A program made the translations under genes and the position numbers. A stretch of DNA of 59,621 bases from a virus. Its lineage: Duplodnaviria; Caudoviricetes. The DNA is taken from positions 1-59,621 of IMG/VR virus record IMGVR_UViG_3300049926_000063; one strand, written 5' to 3'. Below, piece after piece: positions 1,994 through 59,621 of the stretch (positions are counted from its first letter, which is position 1; the number at the start of each line of letters is the position of its first letter). The notes under the pieces were generated by a model, which was not told the DNA's origin, ran no database searches, and saw only the letters and a program-made list of their open reading frames with translations.

Positions 1994-2212
1994 ATGACTG
2001 CCACCGAGAATGAATCTCCCGTCTACGGTCCTATGCTGCCGAAGCTCGACCCTCAGGAAACGCTCGCCGCACTCGACCGGGGCGAGCTTCTTCGGATTCT
2101 CGCCGATGTCGAGGCTGGGCGACTCAGCGCAGATGAATTTCTCCAAATTCTGAACAGCCGTGAAAGCCGTCATCCGTTTCGCCAATTGCTCCATTTCTTC
2201 CTGAACCGATAG
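1994..2212 (+). CDS. Small hypothetical protein, operon partner of the GAF-like gene
   Basis: ATG after ggaagg; ILADVEAGRLSADEF resembles SHOCT-like helical hairpins. Confidence 0.55.
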   Translation: MTATENESPVYGPMLPKLDPQETLAALDRGELLRILADVEAGRLSADEFLQILNSRESRHPFRQLLHFFLNR

Positions 2213-2245: not shown

Positions 2246-2274
2246 CCGCCCATGTGGGCGGCGTTTTCATTTTG
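2246..2274 (+). terminator. Probable intrinsic terminator
   Basis: ccgccc-atgt-gggcgg hairpin followed by T-rich tail. Confidence 0.45.
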
Positions 2275-2341
2275 TGGTCAGACCCCATTTTAAAGTCACG
2301 CCCCCGAATTTGTGGTCAGCGGGCATTTTGTGGGCAAAGCC
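2268..2341. repeat. Right TIR plus three subterminal repeats (WTTT-NNN-GTCA, 18-20 bp period)
   Basis: attttgtggtcag, attttaaagtcac, aatttgtggtcag, attttgtgggcaaagcc. Confidence 0.8.
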
Positions 2342-3268
2342 CTCAAGCAGGCTACTGGTTCGGATGGACCCAGCCTGTTCGACGCATTCGACTGGTTGCC
2401 GCCAGAGCCAACACGTCTCGAGTTGCTTACCCCTGACGATCTTTTCGATCACATTGTTGATCAAAGCAGTCTCGAGTCCTTCAAGGAAGACAAGCGGCTC
2501 GAGAGGAAGCCCGCCGGATTCGGTGGATCATCGCTGGCGGAATACTTGTCTATGTGGGCGAACACGCCGCCCGATGGCGGCCTCATGATCATGGGGATCA
2601 ACGACGATGGGTCGATTCAGGGCTGTAGAAAACTCTCGCCGAAAAAGCTGAACGAACTCGAGGCAATGCAGGACACGTGTCCCGATGCCAACTGCGTTAC
2701 CAAGCGGGTGCCGGTGGCCCTTCCCGACGGCACGCCCGATTTTGTCGTAGTCGTGCGTGTTTTTTACCGCAAGGGCCGTGCGGTTCGCACCCCACAAGGC
2801 ACTGTTCACGCACGGAGGGGCGACAGAAAGAAGAATCTTGGGCCAGAAGAGGCTCGAGAGCTTGCCATCGACAAAGGGGAGATCGACTTCGAGCAAGAGG
2901 CCTGCACCCGGCTCGAGTATCCGAGAGATTTCGACCGCGATGCGGTTCGGGCGTTTGCGGATAATGTCCGGGAAGTACTCGATCTCGAGACGGACGTATC
3001 TGACGAGACTATTTTGTCTGTTCGTCATTTGGGCGTGCTCAAGGGTAGCAAGTTAATTCCCAATATCGCGTGTGCCCTCTTGTTCGCAAAAGAGCCTGAC
3101 CGCCTCATACCGGGTTGCAAGGTTCGGTTCCTCCGCTTCGACGGGGACCAAGAAGGCAGCGGCGAAAAGTTCAACGCAGTGAAGGATATTTGGGTTGAGG
3201 GGTTCACAGTGCCTACCTGCCCTTCGAAAGCATCCCGGCTTCACGCATCGCGTTCAGCATGTCGATAG
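2312..3268 (+). pseudogene. Schlafen/AlbA_2-domain protein, probably truncated
   Basis: EDKRLERK...SMWANT...GGLMIMGINDDGSIQG AlbA_2 motif; recognisable sequence stops near DIWVEG (~3210); the annotated GTG start lies inside the transposon end. Confidence 0.7.
2342..2351 (+). repeat. Target site duplication CTCAAGCAGG (right copy)
   Basis: Identical to 57532-57541. Confidence 0.88.
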
Positions 3269-3488: not shown

Positions 3489-5141
3489 TCATCGATGCAG
3501 TCCTTCGGTCGGCGCGATCGGCCCGCGCTCGGTAATGAGCCCCATCGTCCGCAGTCGCCCGAGATTGGTCCCATAGCTGCCGCCGTTCGGATGCAACCCG
3601 AGGGCCTCGGCGAGTTCGTCGCGTGTGAGCGGCCGCGCGGCGGCGACCAGTGCGCGAATGATGTTCCGCTTCGGCTCGTCTTCCAGCGCTCGCAGTGCGG
3701 CATCGAATCCGGTCTCTTGGACCCGTGCCGTGCTCTGCCCGAGGTCCGTGAGCACGCATCCGGAGAGGTAGCCGTTCGACCGCAGGTAGCCGAGGTTCGT
3801 TCCGTACGATCCGCCGTTGGGGTGGATGCCGAGCCAACGCGCGACGCTATCGCGGTCGGCAGTGATGCCGCGAACACTGAGCATCAGAATCGTGTCGAGA
3901 ATGGCTTGCTGCGGACCGGTGAGTCCGCCGCTGGTACATTCGGCGGCTTTCGCGCGAGGAACTATACTGGTTCGAACCGGTGTTGCTGATTGGTGTTTAC
4001 CGGCCGCCGGTACACTTGGGCGGAACGCCGGCTGAGCTTGTACCGGCACTGCCGCCGCGATCGACTTCACCAGGCCGCGAACCTCGAGCGTCATCTCTTC
4101 GAATGTTTCGAACATCTTCGCCGCGACCGCCTCGGTTCGCTCAAGCTGTCCGTTCGCCAGCACGGGCACTTCAACGCGCACCTCTTTGATGACTTCCTCA
4201 GCCGGGCGTTCGGTCAGTTTCTTTTCAAGTTCTGCGATTCGCTTCCGCAACAGTTTCGGATCATTCGCCTCGGCCTCCTTCACAGCCTCGGCCATCGCCC
4301 GGTTCACTTCCGCCAGATCGATCGCGCCGACCGTCTTCGGTGACTTCACCCCGTGCTTCGGCGCCGCTGATGAATCGTAGGTCCAAATGCCGGGGAACTT
4401 CTCGCGGTGCAGGTAGTTGCCCTCCGGATACCACACCCATCCTTCGCCGCGCTGGAGTTGAGCCAGGGAGTCGAGCACCGTCTTGCCGCTGATGGGATCA
4501 CCCATGCCGTCGATCCAATCCTTGATCGCTCCGCGATCCTGCGGTGCAATCACGCGCATCGCAATAAGCGTGTCGGCACAGGTGAGAGAATCCTTGTGGA
4601 GCTTCGCCGGCCGCTGCGTGATGAGCATCCCGCGGATACCGCGCGATCGGCCACCGGACATGAGCCGGTTGCAGGCGAATAGCATCTTGCCGGCATCCAC
4701 GTCGTGAACCCGGCCTTGCGGCGCGAAGTAATGGGCCTCGTCGATCACGAGATGCAGTGGATTCTTGAGCGTTGTGTAGAGCGTGCCGGCGAAATCGATG
4801 AACCAGCGGGTATACTCGCCGACCGTGAAGCCCGAAGTGTCGATTACGACACTCGCGCCTTGCTCGGTGACCAGGCGGGCGACTGCGGCGCCAGATCGAT
4901 CCGAGAGTGGAACGTCGGCATGCTCGCCGCCGAGGAGCACAACGTCGAGGCCCTTGGCTCGACCGTCCGCAGCGAGGCGGAGCCCCCACCACGCCCCAGT
5001 CGGATCGATGATGCACGTCTGCCGTTGCTGGCGAAGAACGTGCTCGATGATCGCCTTCGCGCAAAACGTCTTGCCGGATCCAGTTTTCCCGAGGATCGCG
5101 ATGTGCTGGTCGAGCGCTGCCGGCGGGATGAAGAACTTCAT
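3489..5141 (-). CDS. HerA-like (DUF87) ATPase with coiled coil and tandem C-terminal wHTH-like repeats
   Basis: Walker A HIAILGKTGSGKT, IIDPTG, Walker B LVIDEAH, GRSRG, ITQRPA. Confidence 0.88.
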   Translation of the reverse strand: MKFFIPPAALDQHIAILGKTGSGKTFCAKAIIEHVLRQQRQTCIIDPTGAWWGLRLAADGRAKGLDVVLLGGEHADVPLSDRSGAAVARLVTEQGASVVIDTSGFTVGEYTRWFIDFAGTLYTTLKNPLHLVIDEAHYFAPQGRVHDVDAGKMLFACNRLMSGGRSRGIRGMLITQRPAKLHKDSLTCADTLIAMRVIAPQDRGAIKDWIDGMGDPISGKTVLDSLAQLQRGEGWVWYPEGNYLHREKFPGIWTYDSSAAPKHGVKSPKTVGAIDLAEVNRAMAEAVKEAEANDPKLLRKRIAELEKKLTERPAEEVIKEVRVEVPVLANGQLERTEAVAAKMFETFEEMTLEVRGLVKSIAAAVPVQAQPAFRPSVPAAGKHQSATPVRTSIVPRAKAAECTSGGLTGPQQAILDTILMLSVRGITADRDSVARWLGIHPNGGSYGTNLGYLRSNGYLSGCVLTDLGQSTARVQETGFDAALRALEDEPKRNIIRALVAAARPLTRDELAEALGLHPNGGSYGTNLGRLRTMGLITERGPIAPTEGLHR

Positions 5142-5226
5142 GACCACTCCTATTCGGCTTCGAACAACGCCGGTTGCCCGAGGAATCGCTCCGCGAGCAT
5201 TTGAGCCAGCACTTGAGCATGACACT

Positions 5227-52887: not shown

Positions 52888-55154
52888 TGACTCCCATTAC
52901 GCGATGCGGCCAGTCGATGCCGCGTCGTCATTGCCCCGCCGTGAGTAGCCTCAGAATTCGGATTGCCCTGCGATCCATGAGCGTTGTAGGAATTCTCGTA
53001 GTCTAGCAGAGCCCCGAAGTCGAACGGGTCGAGGTGCTCATAACGCGATTCACTATTGAGGCGCTCCATCTCATTCTTCGCATGGCGCAGTAAGGATTCC
53101 GCCATCATCTCGCGTTTCTTGGCCTGTATCTTCTGGCCGTCTTCGTGTGTGGTAAACGACGCGGCGAGCTTGAGCCGAACCGAACGCAGCTCCTGCACCG
53201 TTAGGTGTGGTAGATGGTCAGCCAGTTCTGAAAAGTGGCTCGCCGGCACTGCCTCGCCACCACGACGCGCCGAACTGATTTCATTCGAAAGCGACTGAAC
53301 TTTCTTAAGCCTCTCGCTGCGATCCACCCGCTTGCGCTCGGCCTCTTCCTTGGCCTCACCGCGTTTAGTTCGCCCGGTATCCGTCTCGCCGCCAAGAGCC
53401 GCATCGATCTTCGGCCTTTCGTGGATCTTCTCTTTCGACAACCAGCGCCCGGCGTCGTCGCGCGGATGTTTAGCTGCGTCCCAGGACTTCGTTGCCAACG
53501 CCTCCGGATGCTCCAGCAAATACCGCAGGAACTCAGCAACCTCAGAGGCGTGCCCATTATCCGGATCGTGGTTCTTCGCTTCGATCAGGGCGTCAGCGTA
53601 GGCGAGTAGGACAACCTCGTTGTGTGCAACCGATTCCTCACCCTCATCCTCGCTCTTCATCCCCTTGAGTGAAACATCTGGCTCCGTATCGCCACCCATG
53701 TTGTCGAATGGTGCTGTGAGGCTAACCCCGTCTGGTCCAACTGCTCCCGCTGGCGCTTCCCCAGGATTCACGAGCCCACCGGCAACCAGCGGCCGGTCGT
53801 AAATCTCTTCTTCGAATGGTTCCAGTTGCAAAACATGGGTCCGATAATCATTCGGGGCAACGGCGTTGAGAACTCCGCCGATCTGGTAGTCCTGTCGCTG
53901 GGCATCGGGATCAATCGGCGTGTCGTCTTCGAAGAAGATTTTCGCATTCGAATCGAAGAGTTTAGCCAACTTCTCCGTCAGCACCGCAGCCCGTCGCCTT
54001 CTTCTGGGATCAATGGTAGCGATCCCGACATTTGCCATTGCCGCGATTGCAGCGGCCCGCGTCGTCACGCTCCCGAAACCCATCACGACTTCATCGAGCC
54101 CCCACTGGCCCATGATCCACTTGCGGGCCATGTCCACAGAGGACATGAATGCCAGCTCGTGATCGCCAGGCGGAGGAACCCACTGCAAGCCGCCTTCGAG
54201 GATGAGTGGCCGTCCGAAGTTGCCCACGCCGGCGTACTTGGTGAGGAAGCGGCTTTCGATCCGGTTGATCTGGGCATCATCGAGCGGAGCCGTGGCGACT
54301 GAGCTTTGCAGCACCCCGTTGACGTACACCCCGTTATCAAGGCCATAATTGCGAGCGGCAACCGTCTTTTCGTAGCTATCAACGGTATTCGCCATCGCTT
54401 GTAGGGGACTGGCAGCGTAAATCTTGCTCAGCGGGCTCGGCATCTTGTTCCAGATGATTTCGGCAGGATCGAAACGGACCACGCCAGAGGTTGACCCCCC
54501 GCGCGGCGATACCTCGAAGTAGTCAACGAGCTTCTCTTTCCCAAGGCAAATCGGCTTGATCCAGTTCGAGGGGATGACCCAGAGTTCACTCACCCTCCCC
54601 GCCCCATCCGTCACCATCCAAATGAAGTCTTCCCCACAGAGACAATTGAACAACTCCGCTTCATACCACAGGCTCACGCCAGTTTCCGGGTCGTTGGGGT
54701 TGCTGAGAAGCTGCACGAGGGGATCGGACTCATCAAGGAACTCATATTCCTCGTGTGCCTTGGCCGGCCCGATAGACTTCGTCTTCCACCATCGGGGCGC
54801 AAAGGCGCGAGCATCAGGCGGGGACGGCTCCCGCCCCAAGAGAAATGCTTTCTGCGCGAACTTGTATGACTTTTCTTCAACGGGGGAGACGGTGAGAACC
54901 GCAGTCGGTGGGGTCTTACTGATCCTCCCGCATATGTAGTCAATGCACCGATAGTTCCATTCGCGGAAGTGCTGGACTTGCTCGACCTTGCTATTCGGCT
55001 GGATGCCGTACCCGTTGGACCCCCAAGAGCCAACCATTCTCGCCATGCCCGGCTCGCCCGGTGGTACAGAGTTGCCCTTGTCGCTCTTCGTGGAAAACAA
55101 ATTCTTCCCGAAGGTAACAACGGAATCGTACAGACGGGCAAGTCGGCGAGGCAT
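52884..55154 (-). CDS. Portal protein with C-terminal extension
   Basis: LL.NPN, GEDF, ELWVIP, SPL.A, ILEGG; extension begins near WDAAKHPRDDAGRW. Confidence 0.9.
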   Translation of the reverse strand: MPRRLARLYDSVVTFGKNLFSTKSDKGNSVPPGEPGMARMVGSWGSNGYGIQPNSKVEQVQHFREWNYRCIDYICGRISKTPPTAVLTVSPVEEKSYKFAQKAFLLGREPSPPDARAFAPRWWKTKSIGPAKAHEEYEFLDESDPLVQLLSNPNDPETGVSLWYEAELFNCLCGEDFIWMVTDGAGRVSELWVIPSNWIKPICLGKEKLVDYFEVSPRGGSTSGVVRFDPAEIIWNKMPSPLSKIYAASPLQAMANTVDSYEKTVAARNYGLDNGVYVNGVLQSSVATAPLDDAQINRIESRFLTKYAGVGNFGRPLILEGGLQWVPPPGDHELAFMSSVDMARKWIMGQWGLDEVVMGFGSVTTRAAAIAAMANVGIATIDPRRRRRAAVLTEKLAKLFDSNAKIFFEDDTPIDPDAQRQDYQIGGVLNAVAPNDYRTHVLQLEPFEEEIYDRPLVAGGLVNPGEAPAGAVGPDGVSLTAPFDNMGGDTEPDVSLKGMKSEDEGEESVAHNEVVLLAYADALIEAKNHDPDNGHASEVAEFLRYLLEHPEALATKSWDAAKHPRDDAGRWLSKEKIHERPKIDAALGGETDTGRTKRGEAKEEAERKRVDRSERLKKVQSLSNEISSARRGGEAVPASHFSELADHLPHLTVQELRSVRLKLAASFTTHEDGQKIQAKKREMMAESLLRHAKNEMERLNSESRYEHLDPFDFGALLDYENSYNAHGSQGNPNSEATHGGAMTTRHRLAASRNGSH

Positions 55155-55191
55155 ATGGGGGTCTAGTGTAACGCGGGGGAATGCCTGCTGT

Positions 55192-56529
55192 TTAACGGAC
55201 GTTCGGCACGGGCAGCGTCAGCTCTGTAATACAGCCGCTACATGAATCCACAATGTCATCGTGATTGCCGAGCGGGAACCCCCGGTGCTCGTCCAAGAGT
55301 GGCTTATTCCACTCGGCCTGCACCATGCGGGCGTTGCCTGCCTCTATCTGCGCCCCCCACGGTTCCGCCCGTTCCGCCTTCCCACCCTTCGGGGAAACGG
55401 CGAACGCCGGCCATCCCGCGAGGTCGTCTGTCACAATCGACTCGGCTGCGATCTTCCCACTAGCCCCGCCTTCACGCTCGATGCGAATGGGCACCGAGCG
55501 ACCGTCCATGAGGGCCGTTTGTTTGATTAGCTGCCGAACCGCTTTCGGGCCGATCCGGTCTCGTCGCACATCCAGTATCCAAAAGCTCCCATCCTTGTGC
55601 CTTCCCATGAGCGTACCGACTGTCCAGTCTGGGTCCGCGCCGGCCTGCTTCTCCGTGGCCGCGAGATCCCAAAATCGAACACGGCGGGTGAACTGATCGG
55701 CGGTTGGCGCGGCAGGTATCACTTGGATGCGCTCTAGGTGCTTGAAGAACCCGCCTTCAATATCCATCGGAACTTGCTGATACTGCGCCGCGAACCACGT
55801 TGGCGATAGGTTACGTTTCTCTTCGAGGACAGCGATGGGATATCTTGTGGGCCACAAGGCTTCGCCTACTTTCCTCCCAAGAACATCCCCCTCTTTCGCG
55901 AGCGCCGGCAGTTCTATTTCTTTCCATCGCCCCGGCTCGTGGGCGCGAAACCTACCCGTCGGGTCGTCGGTGTGCCATCGTTGCGCCGTGTGTAATACCG
56001 CAGCTCCAGGTTCCAACCGCGAATACGCTGTGCTCACAATCCAGTCCCAGGTGTGCTCGCGAATTGTCGGTGAGCAGGCTTCCTCTGAATTCTTCAACAG
56101 GTCATCGAAGATCATCAGATCGGCACCCTTGCCGAGAATAGCGCCGCCGCGACCCGCAGTTTGCATTCCCCCGCCGTGCTTCGCGATCTCCCATCGATCC
56201 GCCGCTTTGCTATCACCCATCATGCTGACGCCAAAGTGCGGCCCCCAGCGGATAACCAAATCTCTGACCTTCCTTCCCCATTGGGCGGCAAAGCCGGCTT
56301 CATAGGAGCACAGCAGCACTCGCCGCCACGGATGCACCAACAGGAACCATGCGGGGAAGAACTGAGAAATGAGTATCGATTTGCCGTGCCGCGGCGGTGC
56401 CAGGATGTTCAACCGATCACATCGCCCCGCCGCCATCGATCGGAGGTTCTTGTTTATCAACCTTAGGTGCGGTGGAGTCTCCCACGAGCGGAGAGTGAGA
56501 GCCCCCAACTTAGCCGGACTGTCCACCAT
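55192..56529 (-). CDS. Terminase large subunit
   Basis: APPRHGKS, LMIFDD, QRWHTDD, AQYQQ.P, WDLAA, HDDIVDS. Confidence 0.95.
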   Translation of the reverse strand: MVDSPAKLGALTLRSWETPPHLRLINKNLRSMAAGRCDRLNILAPPRHGKSILISQFFPAWFLLVHPWRRVLLCSYEAGFAAQWGRKVRDLVIRWGPHFGVSMMGDSKAADRWEIAKHGGGMQTAGRGGAILGKGADLMIFDDLLKNSEEACSPTIREHTWDWIVSTAYSRLEPGAAVLHTAQRWHTDDPTGRFRAHEPGRWKEIELPALAKEGDVLGRKVGEALWPTRYPIAVLEEKRNLSPTWFAAQYQQVPMDIEGGFFKHLERIQVIPAAPTADQFTRRVRFWDLAATEKQAGADPDWTVGTLMGRHKDGSFWILDVRRDRIGPKAVRQLIKQTALMDGRSVPIRIEREGGASGKIAAESIVTDDLAGWPAFAVSPKGGKAERAEPWGAQIEAGNARMVQAEWNKPLLDEHRGFPLGNHDDIVDSCSGCITELTLPVPNVR

Positions 56530-56794
56530 GCTCGCCGTCAACCTCATTGAGCTTGTCACGGACATCTTTCCCAAGAGCGTCATCCAGATCAATCTTCATG
56601 CTCACATCTTTCGGGAGCATCTTGACCCAGAGGTGATAGAAGTCGCCGCGATTCTTCCGTCCCCAGTTGACAAGCGACTCCACACCGCCGAGTTCTTCAA
56701 ATGCAGTCTCCAAGGCTGTCTTTACCGAACTCGTGAGTTTGTTCGGCTTGCCCTTGCGACTACCCGCCAGCTTGTTTCCCTTTGCGAATGCCAT
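56510..56794 (-). CDS. Terminase small subunit candidate
   Basis: F.KGN..AG.RKGKPNK.T...AFEELGG...FY.L..K.LPK; directly upstream of terL. Confidence 0.75.
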   Translation of the reverse strand: MAFAKGNKLAGSRKGKPNKLTSSVKTALETAFEELGGVESLVNWGRKNRGDFYHLWVKMLPKDVSMKIDLDDALGKDVRDKLNEVDGEHGGQSG

Positions 56795-56800
56795 GTCTTT

Positions 56801-57226
56801 TCACGTCACTTTGACAATTCGCCGCAGTTCCCGTCCCGCCGCATCACTCGCTATTCGCAAACTCGCATACGGCCCCGGTAGATGCACTTCAACGCCCCGC
56901 TTGCGTGCCTTCACCGCCCACCCACCGGGCACCATGAAATACCACCGACAGCGAATGCGTACAGGGATATCGCCGCTCGCAATCATCGCTGTAATGGCTT
57001 CCCAAGGCGTCATCCCCGTCGCCCAGAGCGATCGGAACTTTTTCCCAACTACCGCTGCCTCTTTTGCTGTTCGGTAAGTGCCAAGATTGATCGATGGCAC
57101 TATCCTCTTCGGTCCAACGTTGACTCGCTGTTGAAAGTAGTCACTATCGAGGCGGATGCGCCGCACTCCCTTCGGCAGCCACGGCTCCCGCCATTCCCGG
57201 TGCGAGCAACGCATCAAATTCCCCAT
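56801..57226 (-). CDS. AP2-like DNA-binding protein
   Basis: LPKGVR...FQ.RV...INLGTY.TA.EAA; second degenerate repeat. Confidence 0.5.
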   Translation of the reverse strand: MGNLMRCSHREWREPWLPKGVRRIRLDSDYFQQRVNVGPKRIVPSINLGTYRTAKEAAVVGKKFRSLWATGMTPWEAITAMIASGDIPVRIRCRWYFMVPGGWAVKARKRGVEVHLPGPYASLRIASDAAGRELRRIVKVT

Positions 57227-57531
57227 CGTCCGCTCGTTGCTGCTCAGGATACCACATTCGTTCAACCGTGTTCTACACAATTTTAGGTGCTGTCCTAGCT
57301 TTGCGTTGCTGATTCGAGAGCCTTCCGCCGCTCGGCAAAGCATCGACTGCACATCTCCGGCATCGAATCGAGAATGTAAGTGGACTCAACGTCGAATGGA
57401 ATGCAGCCGTTGACGATTGGCAGTTTCGCGGCTTCTGCTGGTGAGACATTGAATCGGAAGAAGTTGCCCTCCGAAACAGTATCGCCAAGTTCCACGATGA
57501 TTGCTTCCGGCAGTTTCCCGTTCGGTAACAA

Positions 57532-57541
57532 CTCAAGCAGG
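57532..57541 (+). repeat. Target site duplication CTCAAGCAGG (left copy)
   Basis: Identical to 2342-2351. Confidence 0.88.
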
Positions 57542-57567
57542 GGCTTTGCCCATAAATGCCGGAATGG

Positions 57568-57605
57568 CAGGGAATTTATAGTCAGACCAGGGAATTTAAA
57601 GTCAG
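57568..57605 (+). repeat. Two 18-bp subterminal direct repeats CAGGGAATTTAWAGTCAG
   Basis: 57568-57585 and 57588-57605, one mismatch. Confidence 0.85.
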
Positions 57606-57642
57606 GCTTTCATTATTCTAGAGGCTCGGCTATCGGCGGAGA

Positions 57643-57942
57643 ATGAGGGTAAGTCTTTCAGCGGTGATGGCAGCATCGATTTGCCTGGCTTTGCTCCCAG
57701 GGTGCGGCACCGCCCAGAATATGACTCAGAGTTTCGAGGTGTACGGTGGGGTGAAACGGTCCGTTGCGAAATTGAAAGAGAAGCCGGAAGAGACAGAGGA
57801 AGTGCAACCGAAGAGATATCCGATTCCCGTTTATGCGGCGGATGTGGGGCTGTCGGCAATTGGGGATACTCTGACCCTCCCCATCACGCTACCGATTCAG
57901 ATTGTGGTTGGCATCTTCATCTCGATTGCTTATTTCACTTGA
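57643..57942 (+). CDS. YceK/YidQ-family lipoprotein (transposon cargo)
   Basis: Lipobox LPG|CGT; VYGGV; D..LS.IGDTLTLP. Confidence 0.82.
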   Translation: MRVSLSAVMAASICLALLPGCGTAQNMTQSFEVYGGVKRSVAKLKEKPEETEEVQPKRYPIPVYAADVGLSAIGDTLTLPITLPIQIVVGIFISIAYFT

Positions 57943-57945
57943 CGG

Positions 57946-59172
57946 CTAGACGGGGAACCGCACGATTCGCGGTTCCTCTTCCGTCCGGGTGAACCCCAAG
58001 TCGATCCCGAGTTCGTGCGTCTCGTGAATACAGACGACCACGTTGTGCGCCACGATCTTCGCCAGCACTTCGTTCTTGCAAGCCACGTCCGTCTTAGAGC
58101 GAACCGCGTCCCCGAACTTCCGCTTGATGGCGCTGAACGTGCTTTCGACGTTCGAACGGAGATGGTACTTCCGAAGGTACTCATCTCGGTTCAGCGTGAA
58201 CATGGCGTGCATCTTCTGCCAGATGCCGGGGCCGTTCTCGCCGCGTGAGTTCACTTTGAAGGCGAAGTACGGCACCGCCCCGAGTCCTTGCGTGAACTCC
58301 ATGTTCTCGAAACTCAGATAGCCCTTGTCGGCGCTCACTTCGTCCATGCGGAAGTTCGTCGCCGTGGTCGCGGCCAATTGCTTGAACAGGGTCGAGTCGT
58401 GCCCGCCGTCGATCTCGCACGCCATGACCGCGTTCGTCTTAACGCCCGTCATAATGTGGCACTTCACCCACTCCGCTTTCGTTCGCTCAACGCCATACTT
58501 CGCATCGTACCAGCGTGCGAACTTGTTCGTGCTGAACCCGGTGCTATCGGCGGCGAACTTCGTTTCGACCACGCGAAGAGGCAGGCTGGAACGGATCACA
58601 AGCTCCTTCAAGGTCTTCGTGGTGTTCGGGTCTTCCAGGGTCTTCGCAATCGAGTTGTAGTGCGGGGCCATGTGGATCAGGCCATCGTCGCGGGCGTTGT
58701 TCATATCCGTCTGGAAGCGCCGCCCGCTGAACCCACTGTAAACCTTGTAAATCGCAGCGAAGATCGCCGCATCGTAAGGCAGGGCAGGACGGCCGCGACC
58801 GCTGCGAGGCATCCACTCGATACCCTCGCAGAGATCGCCGAGCAGCTTGAGGAACAGACCCTTCTCGCGGGTCTGCGAAAGGTTGTACGCTTCCCAATTT
58901 TGGCGATATGTCGGGCGCGGTCCCGGTGGGGTTACGTCTTTCGCTTCCGGAATCGGCGTACCGCGATTGCGTTCGCGCACGAACTGGACCGCGAAGCAGT
59001 GTTTGCAGAACAACTGCCGTTCTTCGAAGTCCGGGCAGGTGCATTCCGTTCCTTCGTTGTTCACCTTGTAGCCGCCCTCATGGCTGGCAGACGGAACGTA
59101 GAAGTACGTTTTTCGCTGTTCGATCTTGGCTTTCGCCGCAAGCTCAAGACCTTTAAATTCTCGGGTGTCCAT
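57946..59172 (-). CDS. DDE transposase (IS5/IS4-superfamily) with N-terminal SWIM finger
   Basis: CTCPDF...CKH; RPTY.QNW.AYN; ADSTGF (D), SADKGY (D), YH.RSNVESTFS.IKRKFG (E). Confidence 0.9.
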   Translation of the reverse strand: MDTREFKGLELAAKAKIEQRKTYFYVPSASHEGGYKVNNEGTECTCPDFEERQLFCKHCFAVQFVRERNRGTPIPEAKDVTPPGPRPTYRQNWEAYNLSQTREKGLFLKLLGDLCEGIEWMPRSGRGRPALPYDAAIFAAIYKVYSGFSGRRFQTDMNNARDDGLIHMAPHYNSIAKTLEDPNTTKTLKELVIRSSLPLRVVETKFAADSTGFSTNKFARWYDAKYGVERTKAEWVKCHIMTGVKTNAVMACEIDGGHDSTLFKQLAATTATNFRMDEVSADKGYLSFENMEFTQGLGAVPYFAFKVNSRGENGPGIWQKMHAMFTLNRDEYLRKYHLRSNVESTFSAIKRKFGDAVRSKTDVACKNEVLAKIVAHNVVVCIHETHELGIDLGFTRTEEEPRIVRFPV

Positions 59173-59180
59173 GAACTCAA

Positions 59181-59195
59181 TTATGCTTGAGCGGT
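59181..59195. promoter_or_regulatory. 15-bp putative operator over the transposase promoter
   Basis: Overlaps a CATAAT box 7 nt before ATG; inverse of 1018-1032. Confidence 0.7.
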
Positions 59196-59220
59196 CATGA
59201 ATAATCGAGGTCAGTAGCGA

Positions 59221-59269
59221 ATGCTTTCAAGAAAGCATCGTTGACAAAATGCTATCTAGTTAGCACAAT
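59221..59269 (+). promoter_or_regulatory. P63C promoter with two TGCT-N8-AGCA palindromes
   Basis: TTGACA(59241)-17bp-CACAAT(59264); atgctttcaagaaagcat and tgctatctagttagca. Confidence 0.78.
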
Positions 59270-59299
59270 GTAGGGAAGTCCAAAACCGGGAGGAATCCG

Positions 59300-59621
59300 A
59301 TGAGCGAAGAGAAGAAAGTCGAAAACTCGATGGCATCACTCGGCGGCAAGGCGGCGGCGGCCAACATGACCGCCACCGAACGCCGTGAGCGGGCGAAACT
59401 GGCGGCTGAATCGAGATGGTCTGCAAAGCTACCGAAGGCAACGCACGGCGACGCGGATCATCCGCTTCGCATCGGGGAGCTGGAGATTAGTTGCTACGTT
59501 CTCGATGATGGTCGCCGAGTTGTCTCGCAACGCGGCTTTCAAGCGGGCATCGGGATGAACACCAGCGGGGGTGCGCAGCGTTTGCTCAATTTTGTGGGCT
59601 CTCTCGCCGAAAAGGGCATCG
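59300..59621 (+). CDS. P63C-domain protein, 5' part (continues across the origin)
   Basis: GGAGG RBS; MSEEKK...LGGKAAAANMTATERRERAKLAAESRW...LRIGELEISCYVLDDG in frame with 1-822. Confidence 0.88.
   Translation, partial: MSEEKKVENSMASLGGKAAAANMTATERRERAKLAAESRWSAKLPKATHGDADHPLRIGELEISCYVLDDGRRVVSQRGFQAGIGMNTSGGAQRLLNFVGSLAEKGI

Follow-up and report, generated by a model that had tools for sequence, protein, structure and literature searches.

Organization of the Locus

In this work, we describe a transposon carried in the genome of a soil phage, available as IMG/VR record IMGVR_UViG_3300049926_000063 (Duplodnaviria; Caudoviricetes); the window is the whole stretch of DNA that was analysed, 59,621 nucleotides in length. 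The window encodes a large terminase, a portal protein, a major head protein and a tape-measure protein, which is why we regard it as the genome of a tailed phage. IMG/VR assigns the record to the class with direct terminal repeats and gives its completeness as 100%. Its first 127 bases are identical to its last 127, and the sequence thus closes into a circle of 59,494 bp. Across the origin of this circle, at positions 57542-59494 and 1-2341, lies a segment of 4,294 bp with the anatomy of a unit transposon, namely one transposase gene with passenger genes, one pair of inverted ends and one flanking duplication. An earlier note on this DNA had proposed a cargo-carrying element hidden across the origin, and both the redundancy of the window ends and the extent of the segment bear this out. 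With a probability of about 0.9, we interpret the segment as a non-composite (unit) transposon with an IS903-related transposase of the SWIM and DDE_Tnp_1 domains, inserted in a small phage gene together with five passenger genes.

The element begins with a left terminal inverted repeat on the plus strand, GGCTTTGCCCATAAATGCC, at 57542-57560, on the 3' side of the transposase gene; the right end, at position 2341, reads GGCTTTGCCCACAAAATGCC as its reverse complement. The two ends, which open with GGCTTTGCCC..., match as inverted repeats at 14 of 16 positions without a gap (left, GGCTTTGCCCATAAAT; right, as reverse complement, GGCTTTGCCCACAAAA). Directly outside them stand two copies of a 10-bp target-site duplication, CTCAAGCAGG, at 57532-57541 and 2342-2351, and these copies are perfectly identical, so that the matching ends and perfect duplication claimed in the earlier note are indeed present. 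The same note had allowed for a duplication of 8 bp, an alternative that is less likely because related elements give 9 or 10 bp.

Inside the ends, short repeats occur. The motif TG(A/C)CCACAAA(T/A) was found by a motif scan in three direct copies within 72 bases at the cargo-side end (2270-2341, minus strand), where two copies accompany the terminal inverted repeat at 2323-2341, and in one copy at the left end; shuffled sequences are expected to hold 0.2. Elsewhere in the element, including the surroundings of the transposase gene, this motif is absent. Just inside the left end, at 57570-57605 on the plus strand, there are two direct copies of GGGAATTTA(T/A)AGTCAG, a pair of 16-mers that was recognized by eye, without statistics, and looks different from TG(A/C)CCACAAA(T/A). 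A triple repeat of the same kind was seen in a related element, designated L009. These internal repeats are putative multiple binding sites for the transposase.

The Interrupted Phage Gene

The insertion lies about 950 bp upstream of the large terminase gene, the packaging module being located at 55192-56592. To its left, on the minus strand, is an open reading frame (ORF) of 78 codons (57295-57531) that represents the C-terminal part of a protein and has one homologue, P0122, an uninterrupted protein of 101 aa with 68% identity. To its right, on the same strand, an N-terminal part of up to 41 codons (2342-2464) falls in frame with it once the element and one copy of the duplication are removed. 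Such in-silico excision, of 4,294 bp plus one duplication copy, restores a minus-strand open frame of 119 codons, and this rebuilt ORF aligns with P0122 at an E-value of 4e-39 over 82 columns, the alignment starting 8 residues ahead of the junction and reaching almost to the end. Because the alignment with the uninterrupted homologue crosses the junction, the comparison supports the view that the insertion split a small phage gene. P0122 is the sole evidence of an empty site.

The element adds 7.8% to the phage genome and has a G+C content of 55.1%, compared with 59.0% in the remaining genome. A recent insertion is suggested by the perfection of the duplication, by the intact state of the transposase and by the fact that both halves of the split ORF are still open and in frame.

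The Transposase and Its Affinities

The transposase gene is located at 57946-59172 on the minus strand and encodes a protein of 408 aa, in which Pfam recognizes a SWIM finger at residues 35-62 and a DDE_Tnp_1 core (PF01609) at residues 205-377, the latter with an E-value of 4.9e-16. In an alignment with 39 homologues, the SWIM ligands C44, C46, C56 and H58 are invariant, as are D209, D282, E343, R339 and K350, while Y336 is nearly so; the core carries the signature Y336-R339-E343-K350. Since its SWIM ligands and catalytic residues match these invariants, the enzyme looks intact, in agreement with the intact transposase with an N-terminal SWIM finger that had been read from the letters.

Seven transposase families in all were listed by NCBIfam for this protein. 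The best model, IS5_2 (NF033579), is matched from position 2 to position 287 of its 289 positions, with a score of 97.9 bits that lies below the cut-off of 140 bits; three homologues scored 114.2, 114.9 and 101.8 bits, so that all four proteins tested fall under the cut-off. ISVa2 and ISSod12, in turn, pass the same model with 387 and 378 bits, are 1,054 and 1,058 bp long, and both begin with GGCTTTGTT. On this basis, the transposase is most like a sub-threshold relative of the ISVa2/ISSod12 (IS903-like) branch of the IS5 family, and the IS5 affinity suggested before stands, since the family model is covered over its whole length and GGCTTTG ends are found in members that pass it. Membership of the IS1182, ISNCY, IS4 or ISKra4 families is not supported, as the cut-offs of their models are not reached (39.8 versus 270 bits for IS1182, 35.6 versus 325 for ISNCY_1 and 31.2 versus 115 for IS4_1). 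A core of the Mutator, Mutator-like element (MULE) or IS256 type is likewise not supported, as Pfam lists only DDE_Tnp_1 and SWIM at E-values up to 0.01.

The lineage to which the window element belongs shares with IS903-like insertion sequences (ISs) of the IS5 family a DDE_Tnp_1 core with the signature Y-(2)-R-(3)-E-(6)-K and, with ISVa2 and ISSod12, the terminal heptamer GGCTTTG. Direct repeats of 9 bp are reported for IS903B (IS5 family) in a passage of PMC9769513, and this is also the commonest duplication length in the window lineage (60 of 79 elements). The differences are nevertheless substantial. The window transposase is only 22-26% identical to those of ISVa2 and ISSod12 and carries about 90 extra N-terminal residues that include the SWIM finger. 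Whereas IS903-like ISs measure about 1.05 kb and hold one gene, members of the lineage reach 2.0-7.8 kb with passenger genes, the window element having six ORFs; they also possess repeated sites inside their ends, and 17 of 79, the window copy included, have duplications of 10 bp. In a plasmid collection, the only matches to the transposase were IS5-like proteins with 22-26% identity (ISVa2, ISVpa3, ISSod12 and ISSpu11), none of which has the SWIM part, and a tblastn search of a phage collection gave no match.

Other systems show partial likeness. IS-derived unit transposons, known in ISfinder as transporter ISs, combine one IS-type transposase, short inverted ends and co-moving passengers, just as the window element does. 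In the known examples, such cargo forms are exceptions within families of bare ISs, whereas no bare form occurs among the 79 elements of the window lineage for which both boundaries were found. Carriers of the Tn7-like and Tn3-family types resemble the lineage in their variable cargo, rich in restriction-modification and defence genes, and in having several end repeats. In contrast to them, the window element has a single small transposase of the IS5 type and a duplication in the range of 9-10 bp, not 5 bp, and Pfam and NCBIfam gave no match to a resolvase, a TnsABC-type protein or a Tn3-type transposase among its ORFs. The SWIM finger is also joined to a DDE transposase in eukaryotic MULEs; in the window protein, by comparison, an N-terminal finger is combined with a DDE_Tnp_1 core.

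Related Elements in Genomes and Viral Contigs

Relatives of the transposase are numerous: out of 8,000 candidates that were scored, at least 4,457 have E-values up to 0.001, and most of these combine SWIM and DDE_Tnp_1; the homologues are named only "transposase" by their sources. A scan of genome contigs with the single transposase protein gave no match, and an alignment-based scan yielded the genome loci used here. In total, 114 places were examined, comprising 79 loci from species genomes, 34 from viral contigs and the window. A place was counted as bounded when GGCTTTG, with at most one mismatch, occurred on both sides of the transposase gene, the inverted match reached at least 12 of 16 positions, and the duplication held at most one mismatch. 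By this rule, 79 of the 114 places are bounded (57 of the 79 genome loci, 21 of the 34 viral loci and the window), compared with 0 of 114 in each of three shuffles of the flanks. The duplications among them measure 9 bp in 60 cases, 10 bp in 17 and 8 bp in two. The architecture of a unit transposon thus recurs in 78 further places, and the comparison of homologues for the same ends, duplication length and variable cargo, which the earlier note had recommended, came out in favour of its proposal, with cargo that consists mostly of singletons. The remaining 35 places are unbounded, and 19 of these have a short flank or a partial gene.

The bounded elements range from 2,015 to 7,778 bp, with a median of 3,891 bp. 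A bare IS of about 1.3 kb does not occur among the 79, the shortest element with a full transposase being 2,095 bp long. Two copies on one contig, L009 and L010, share 99.8% identity over 3.8 kb and occupy different sites, with duplications of 9 and 10 bp. Near-identity at different sites with different duplications shows that the whole unit moves, cargo included, in this relative, a demonstration that holds for L009/L010 and not for the window copy. As one and the same element gives both 9 and 10 bp, the 10 bp of the window are within the normal range of the enzyme.

Several places show more complex arrangements. In L124 (positions 600-700), the 3' part of a transposase gene leads into a right end, which is separated by a 9-bp spacer from the left end of the next element in head-to-tail order; the transposase of that next element starts at 4216. 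The arrangement may represent a tandem pair or a circular form. In L004 (6075-10563), a complete element of 4,346 bp has a 69-bp copy of its own right end in its left flank and a 56-bp copy of its left end in its right flank, each set off by the same 9 bases, with a second transposase gene (89% identical) further on, a pattern suggestive of more than one insertion into the same duplicated target. A metagenome contig, L127 (715-967), holds only an 80-residue piece of a transposase (residues 315-394) with 97% protein identity to that of the window, probably a remnant.

The insertion site in the window is not palindromic, as only 3 of 19 pairs are symmetric. Hairpin-like palindromes of the CCCTCT...AGAGGG type hold about 10 of 77 insertion sites in their loops (L062, L078, L024, L057, L043, L046, L053, L036 and others), which suggests that some members of the family prefer such targets.

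The nearest transposases come from metagenome-assembled genomes of Urbifossiella (67% identity), Isosphaera (66%) and Gemmataceae (58%), and the genome of the cultured Limnoglobus roseus has six matches, two of them near full length. Given the source of the nearest transposases, the host is probably a planctomycete, and the element would have come from this bacterial host.

Passenger Genes and Neighbouring Genes

The labels given to the five passengers in the earlier note survived the comparison with protein families and predicted folds, and all five ORFs are open. Beside the transposase gene, on the plus strand at 57643-57942, is a 99-aa ORF for a YceK-like protein with a lipoprotein-like signal ending in LLPGC; it matches Pfam DUF1375 (PF07119) with an E-value of 1.4e-4 and 22.5 bits, against a cut-off of 20.3, and has no match in PHROG or PADLOC. 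The P63C gene, also on the plus strand, crosses the origin: its 5' part lies at 59300-59621, where 59495-59621 repeats 1-127, and its 3' part at 1-822. The protein of 338 aa matches Pfam P63C (E-value 6.9e-31) and phrog_2384 (E-value 3.1e-83), the 5' part corresponding to positions 4-92 of the latter. It is the only window passenger that recurs in the fetched loci, namely in the bounded element L106 (44% identity), where it has the same position, upstream of the transposase gene and divergent from it. A basic ORF of 60 aa follows on the minus strand (819-1001) and matches positions 8-40 of phrog_2384 with an E-value of 3.6e-8. It has the same short motif, the N-terminus of phrog_2384, as the N-terminus of P63C (59300-59440, plus strand), and this ORF may be a free-standing copy of the N-terminal module of that family.

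The fourth passenger, at 1044-1982 on the plus strand, encodes a membrane-GAF protein of 312 aa. Its N-terminal helices are hydrophobic, a long helix is also present, and the C-terminal part has a GAF fold, as recognized with AlphaFold2 and Foldseek. It has 169 homologues. The AlphaFold2 model built with 50 homologous sequences reached a mean predicted local distance difference test (pLDDT) score of 91.8, compared with 38 for a fold from the single sequence, and among the matches listed by Foldseek in the PDB all the top ones are GAF domains (best, 3ci6_A, E-value 3e-6). The protein itself has no match to Pfam GAF or to another family, and Pfam GAF is matched by 4 of the 50 homologues. An ORF of 72 aa (1994-2212, plus strand, from the ORF list) starts 12 bases after the membrane-GAF gene and probably forms one operon with it; it has no match in Pfam, NCBIfam, PHROG or PADLOC. 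PADLOC gave no credible match for the passengers of the window, P63C at an E-value of 0.008 being the sole listing.

In the family, a crude prediction gave 351 cargo ORFs, which fall into 276 clusters; 255 of these are singletons, and the largest occurs in 11 elements. Of the 198 cargo ORFs with 100 aa or more, 150 were compared with Pfam, which recognized N6_Mtase (9), HTH_3 (6), Eco57I (4), Peptidase_M78 (3) and N6_N4_Mtase (2), as well as BamHI, BglII, AIPR, HSDR_N, SocA_Panacea, thymidylate synthase, dihydrofolate reductase (DHFR) and protein kinase, once each; PADLOC agrees on the methyltransferase and type IIG families. The majority of cargo ORFs have no match. The closest relative compared at the DNA level, L124 (79% identity on a transposase fragment), carries HEPN (RiboL-PSP), GmrSD_N and N6_N4_Mtase genes, none of them common to the window. 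This shows, at the level of sequence, that the cargo of the family is almost wholly different between elements and often consists of restriction-modification or other defence genes.

Two phage genes outside the element are also worth recording. Adjoining the insertion, at 2396-3268 on the plus strand, a Schlafen/AlbA_2-domain protein is encoded that matches a PHROG family named "DNA helicase" and a pAgo-associated profile of PADLOC; a search with this right-flank protein found no viral relative. At 3489-5225 on the minus strand, far from the packaging module, there is a gene for a 578-aa protein that matches a second PHROG of terminase large subunits, phrog_2666, in its ATPase part only.

Alternative Explanations

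Several observations weigh against the interpretation as a unit transposon in a split phage gene. The part of the alignment with P0122 that crosses the junction amounts to only 8 residues, 4 of which are identical. The empty allele that the earlier note proposed to look for was not found at the DNA level among relatives or in viral and metagenome contigs, leaving the uninterrupted protein homologue in its place, and the 25 bases of the left flank have no second exact match in viral or metagenome contigs. The nearest phages, found through the terminase (L115-L122; large terminase 64-69% identical), lack the flanking genes. In the one sequencing run that was compared, contigs rather than reads were used, and neither a second copy of the element nor another contig with it was seen; these contigs reveal no empty allele and no polymorphism, and give no usable depth. 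The 10-bp duplication represents a minority length in the family; 16 of the 35 unbounded places have long flanks and a full-length match, and thus some relatives may be without these ends or may have diverged. Furthermore, the prediction of cargo ORFs in relatives was crude, and some of the frames are spurious.

These points have to be set against three other explanations. One could suppose that a small IS lies beside phage DNA, that the far end is a solo remnant of another copy, and that P63C, the membrane-GAF gene and the small genes belong to the phage; P63C is, after all, a typical phage protein family (phrog_2384), and L004 and L124 offer examples of such elements in tandem or side by side. 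We consider this very unlikely, because the 10-bp duplication flanks the outer ends, the end motif occurs at these two ends and not beside the transposase gene, the relatives include no bare IS down to the shortest element with a full transposase (2,095 bp), P63C stands in the same place in the bounded L106, and the exact removal of 4,294 bp with one duplication copy yields an ORF whose homologue is not interrupted. Even less credible is an assembly artefact, in which a transposon of the host chromosome would have been misjoined into the phage contig. The 127-base overlap might be taken as a sign of it: because it lies inside the element, we read it as a circularisation overlap left by the assembler, presumably tied to the assembler's word size, and not as a physical phage end. 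However, a chimera would give neither a precise 10-bp duplication nor an ORF that closes in frame, and a separate assembly, from Logan, includes a contig of 10,348 bp that spans 55000-59621 with zero differences and extends past both ends of that stretch. The stretch is held, as contigs, by one sequencing run, which may be the source sample itself.

A further possibility, unlikely in our opinion but less so than the other two, accepts the insertion as real and regards the element as now immobile, with cargo that has no role in phage or host. A genome enlarged by 7.8% and a broken gene may mark a dead-end variant, and no second copy appeared in the contigs of the run. On the other side, the transposase is of full length with every residue that is invariant in the 39 homologues, both ends and the duplication are intact, and all passenger ORFs are open. 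A related question concerns the earlier claim that the element delivers morons to a phage: this is only half shown, as five genes were brought in that might be expressed and of use to phage or host, and a phage gene was broken in the process. The cargo may serve exclusion or defence, a role suggested by the company of genes found in the family only.

Proposed Mechanism and Significance

For the unit transposon as interpreted here, a mechanism can be proposed by extension from the established behaviour of DDE_Tnp_1 enzymes of the IS4/IS5 group. The transposase would bind the GGCTTTGC... ends together with the TG(A/C)CCACAAA(T/A) sites just inside them, with the SWIM finger, as we would guess, taking part in end recognition. 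It would then cleave the ends and transfer the strands into a target opened by a staggered cut of 9 or 10 bases, the repair of which would give the duplication, so that everything between the ends moves. Both cut-and-paste and replicative modes are possible for the element.

In the open-access literature, supplements aside, no description of IS5-type cargo transposons with SWIM and DDE_Tnp_1 was found, which fits the poorly described lineage that had been suspected. The family is apparently undescribed, as judged from this literature and from the names given by sources rather than by comparison with ISfinder or TnCentral entries. A broader proposal, which we offer tentatively and rate at somewhat less than even odds, is that the window element belongs to a very large undescribed family, characterized by the N-terminal SWIM finger, the GGCTTTGC ends with inner repeats, duplications of 9 or 10 bp and the lack of any bare IS, and acting as a general shuttle of restriction-modification, HEPN, GmrSD, Abi and toxin-antitoxin genes among soil Acidobacteriota, Planctomycetota, Alphaproteobacteria and their phages. 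The lipoprotein, P63C and membrane-GAF genes of the window would then be exclusion or defence cargo gained at the cost of one small gene.

The usual picture of an IS5-type element is that of a bare insertion sequence with one gene. The branch described here, in which more than 4,400 proteins can be detected, seems to be made for carrying genes, much of the cargo being defence. If this is true, a simple, single-protein vehicle would join the carriers of defence systems that are already known, and would do so in soil phyla whose mobile elements are poorly catalogued. Its reliance on a single 408-aa protein and on short, defined ends should also make bench tests of the system easy. The presence of a copy in a complete phage genome indicates that such vehicles may cross from the cell to the phage, where new membrane and sensor proteins would be acquired in a single event.

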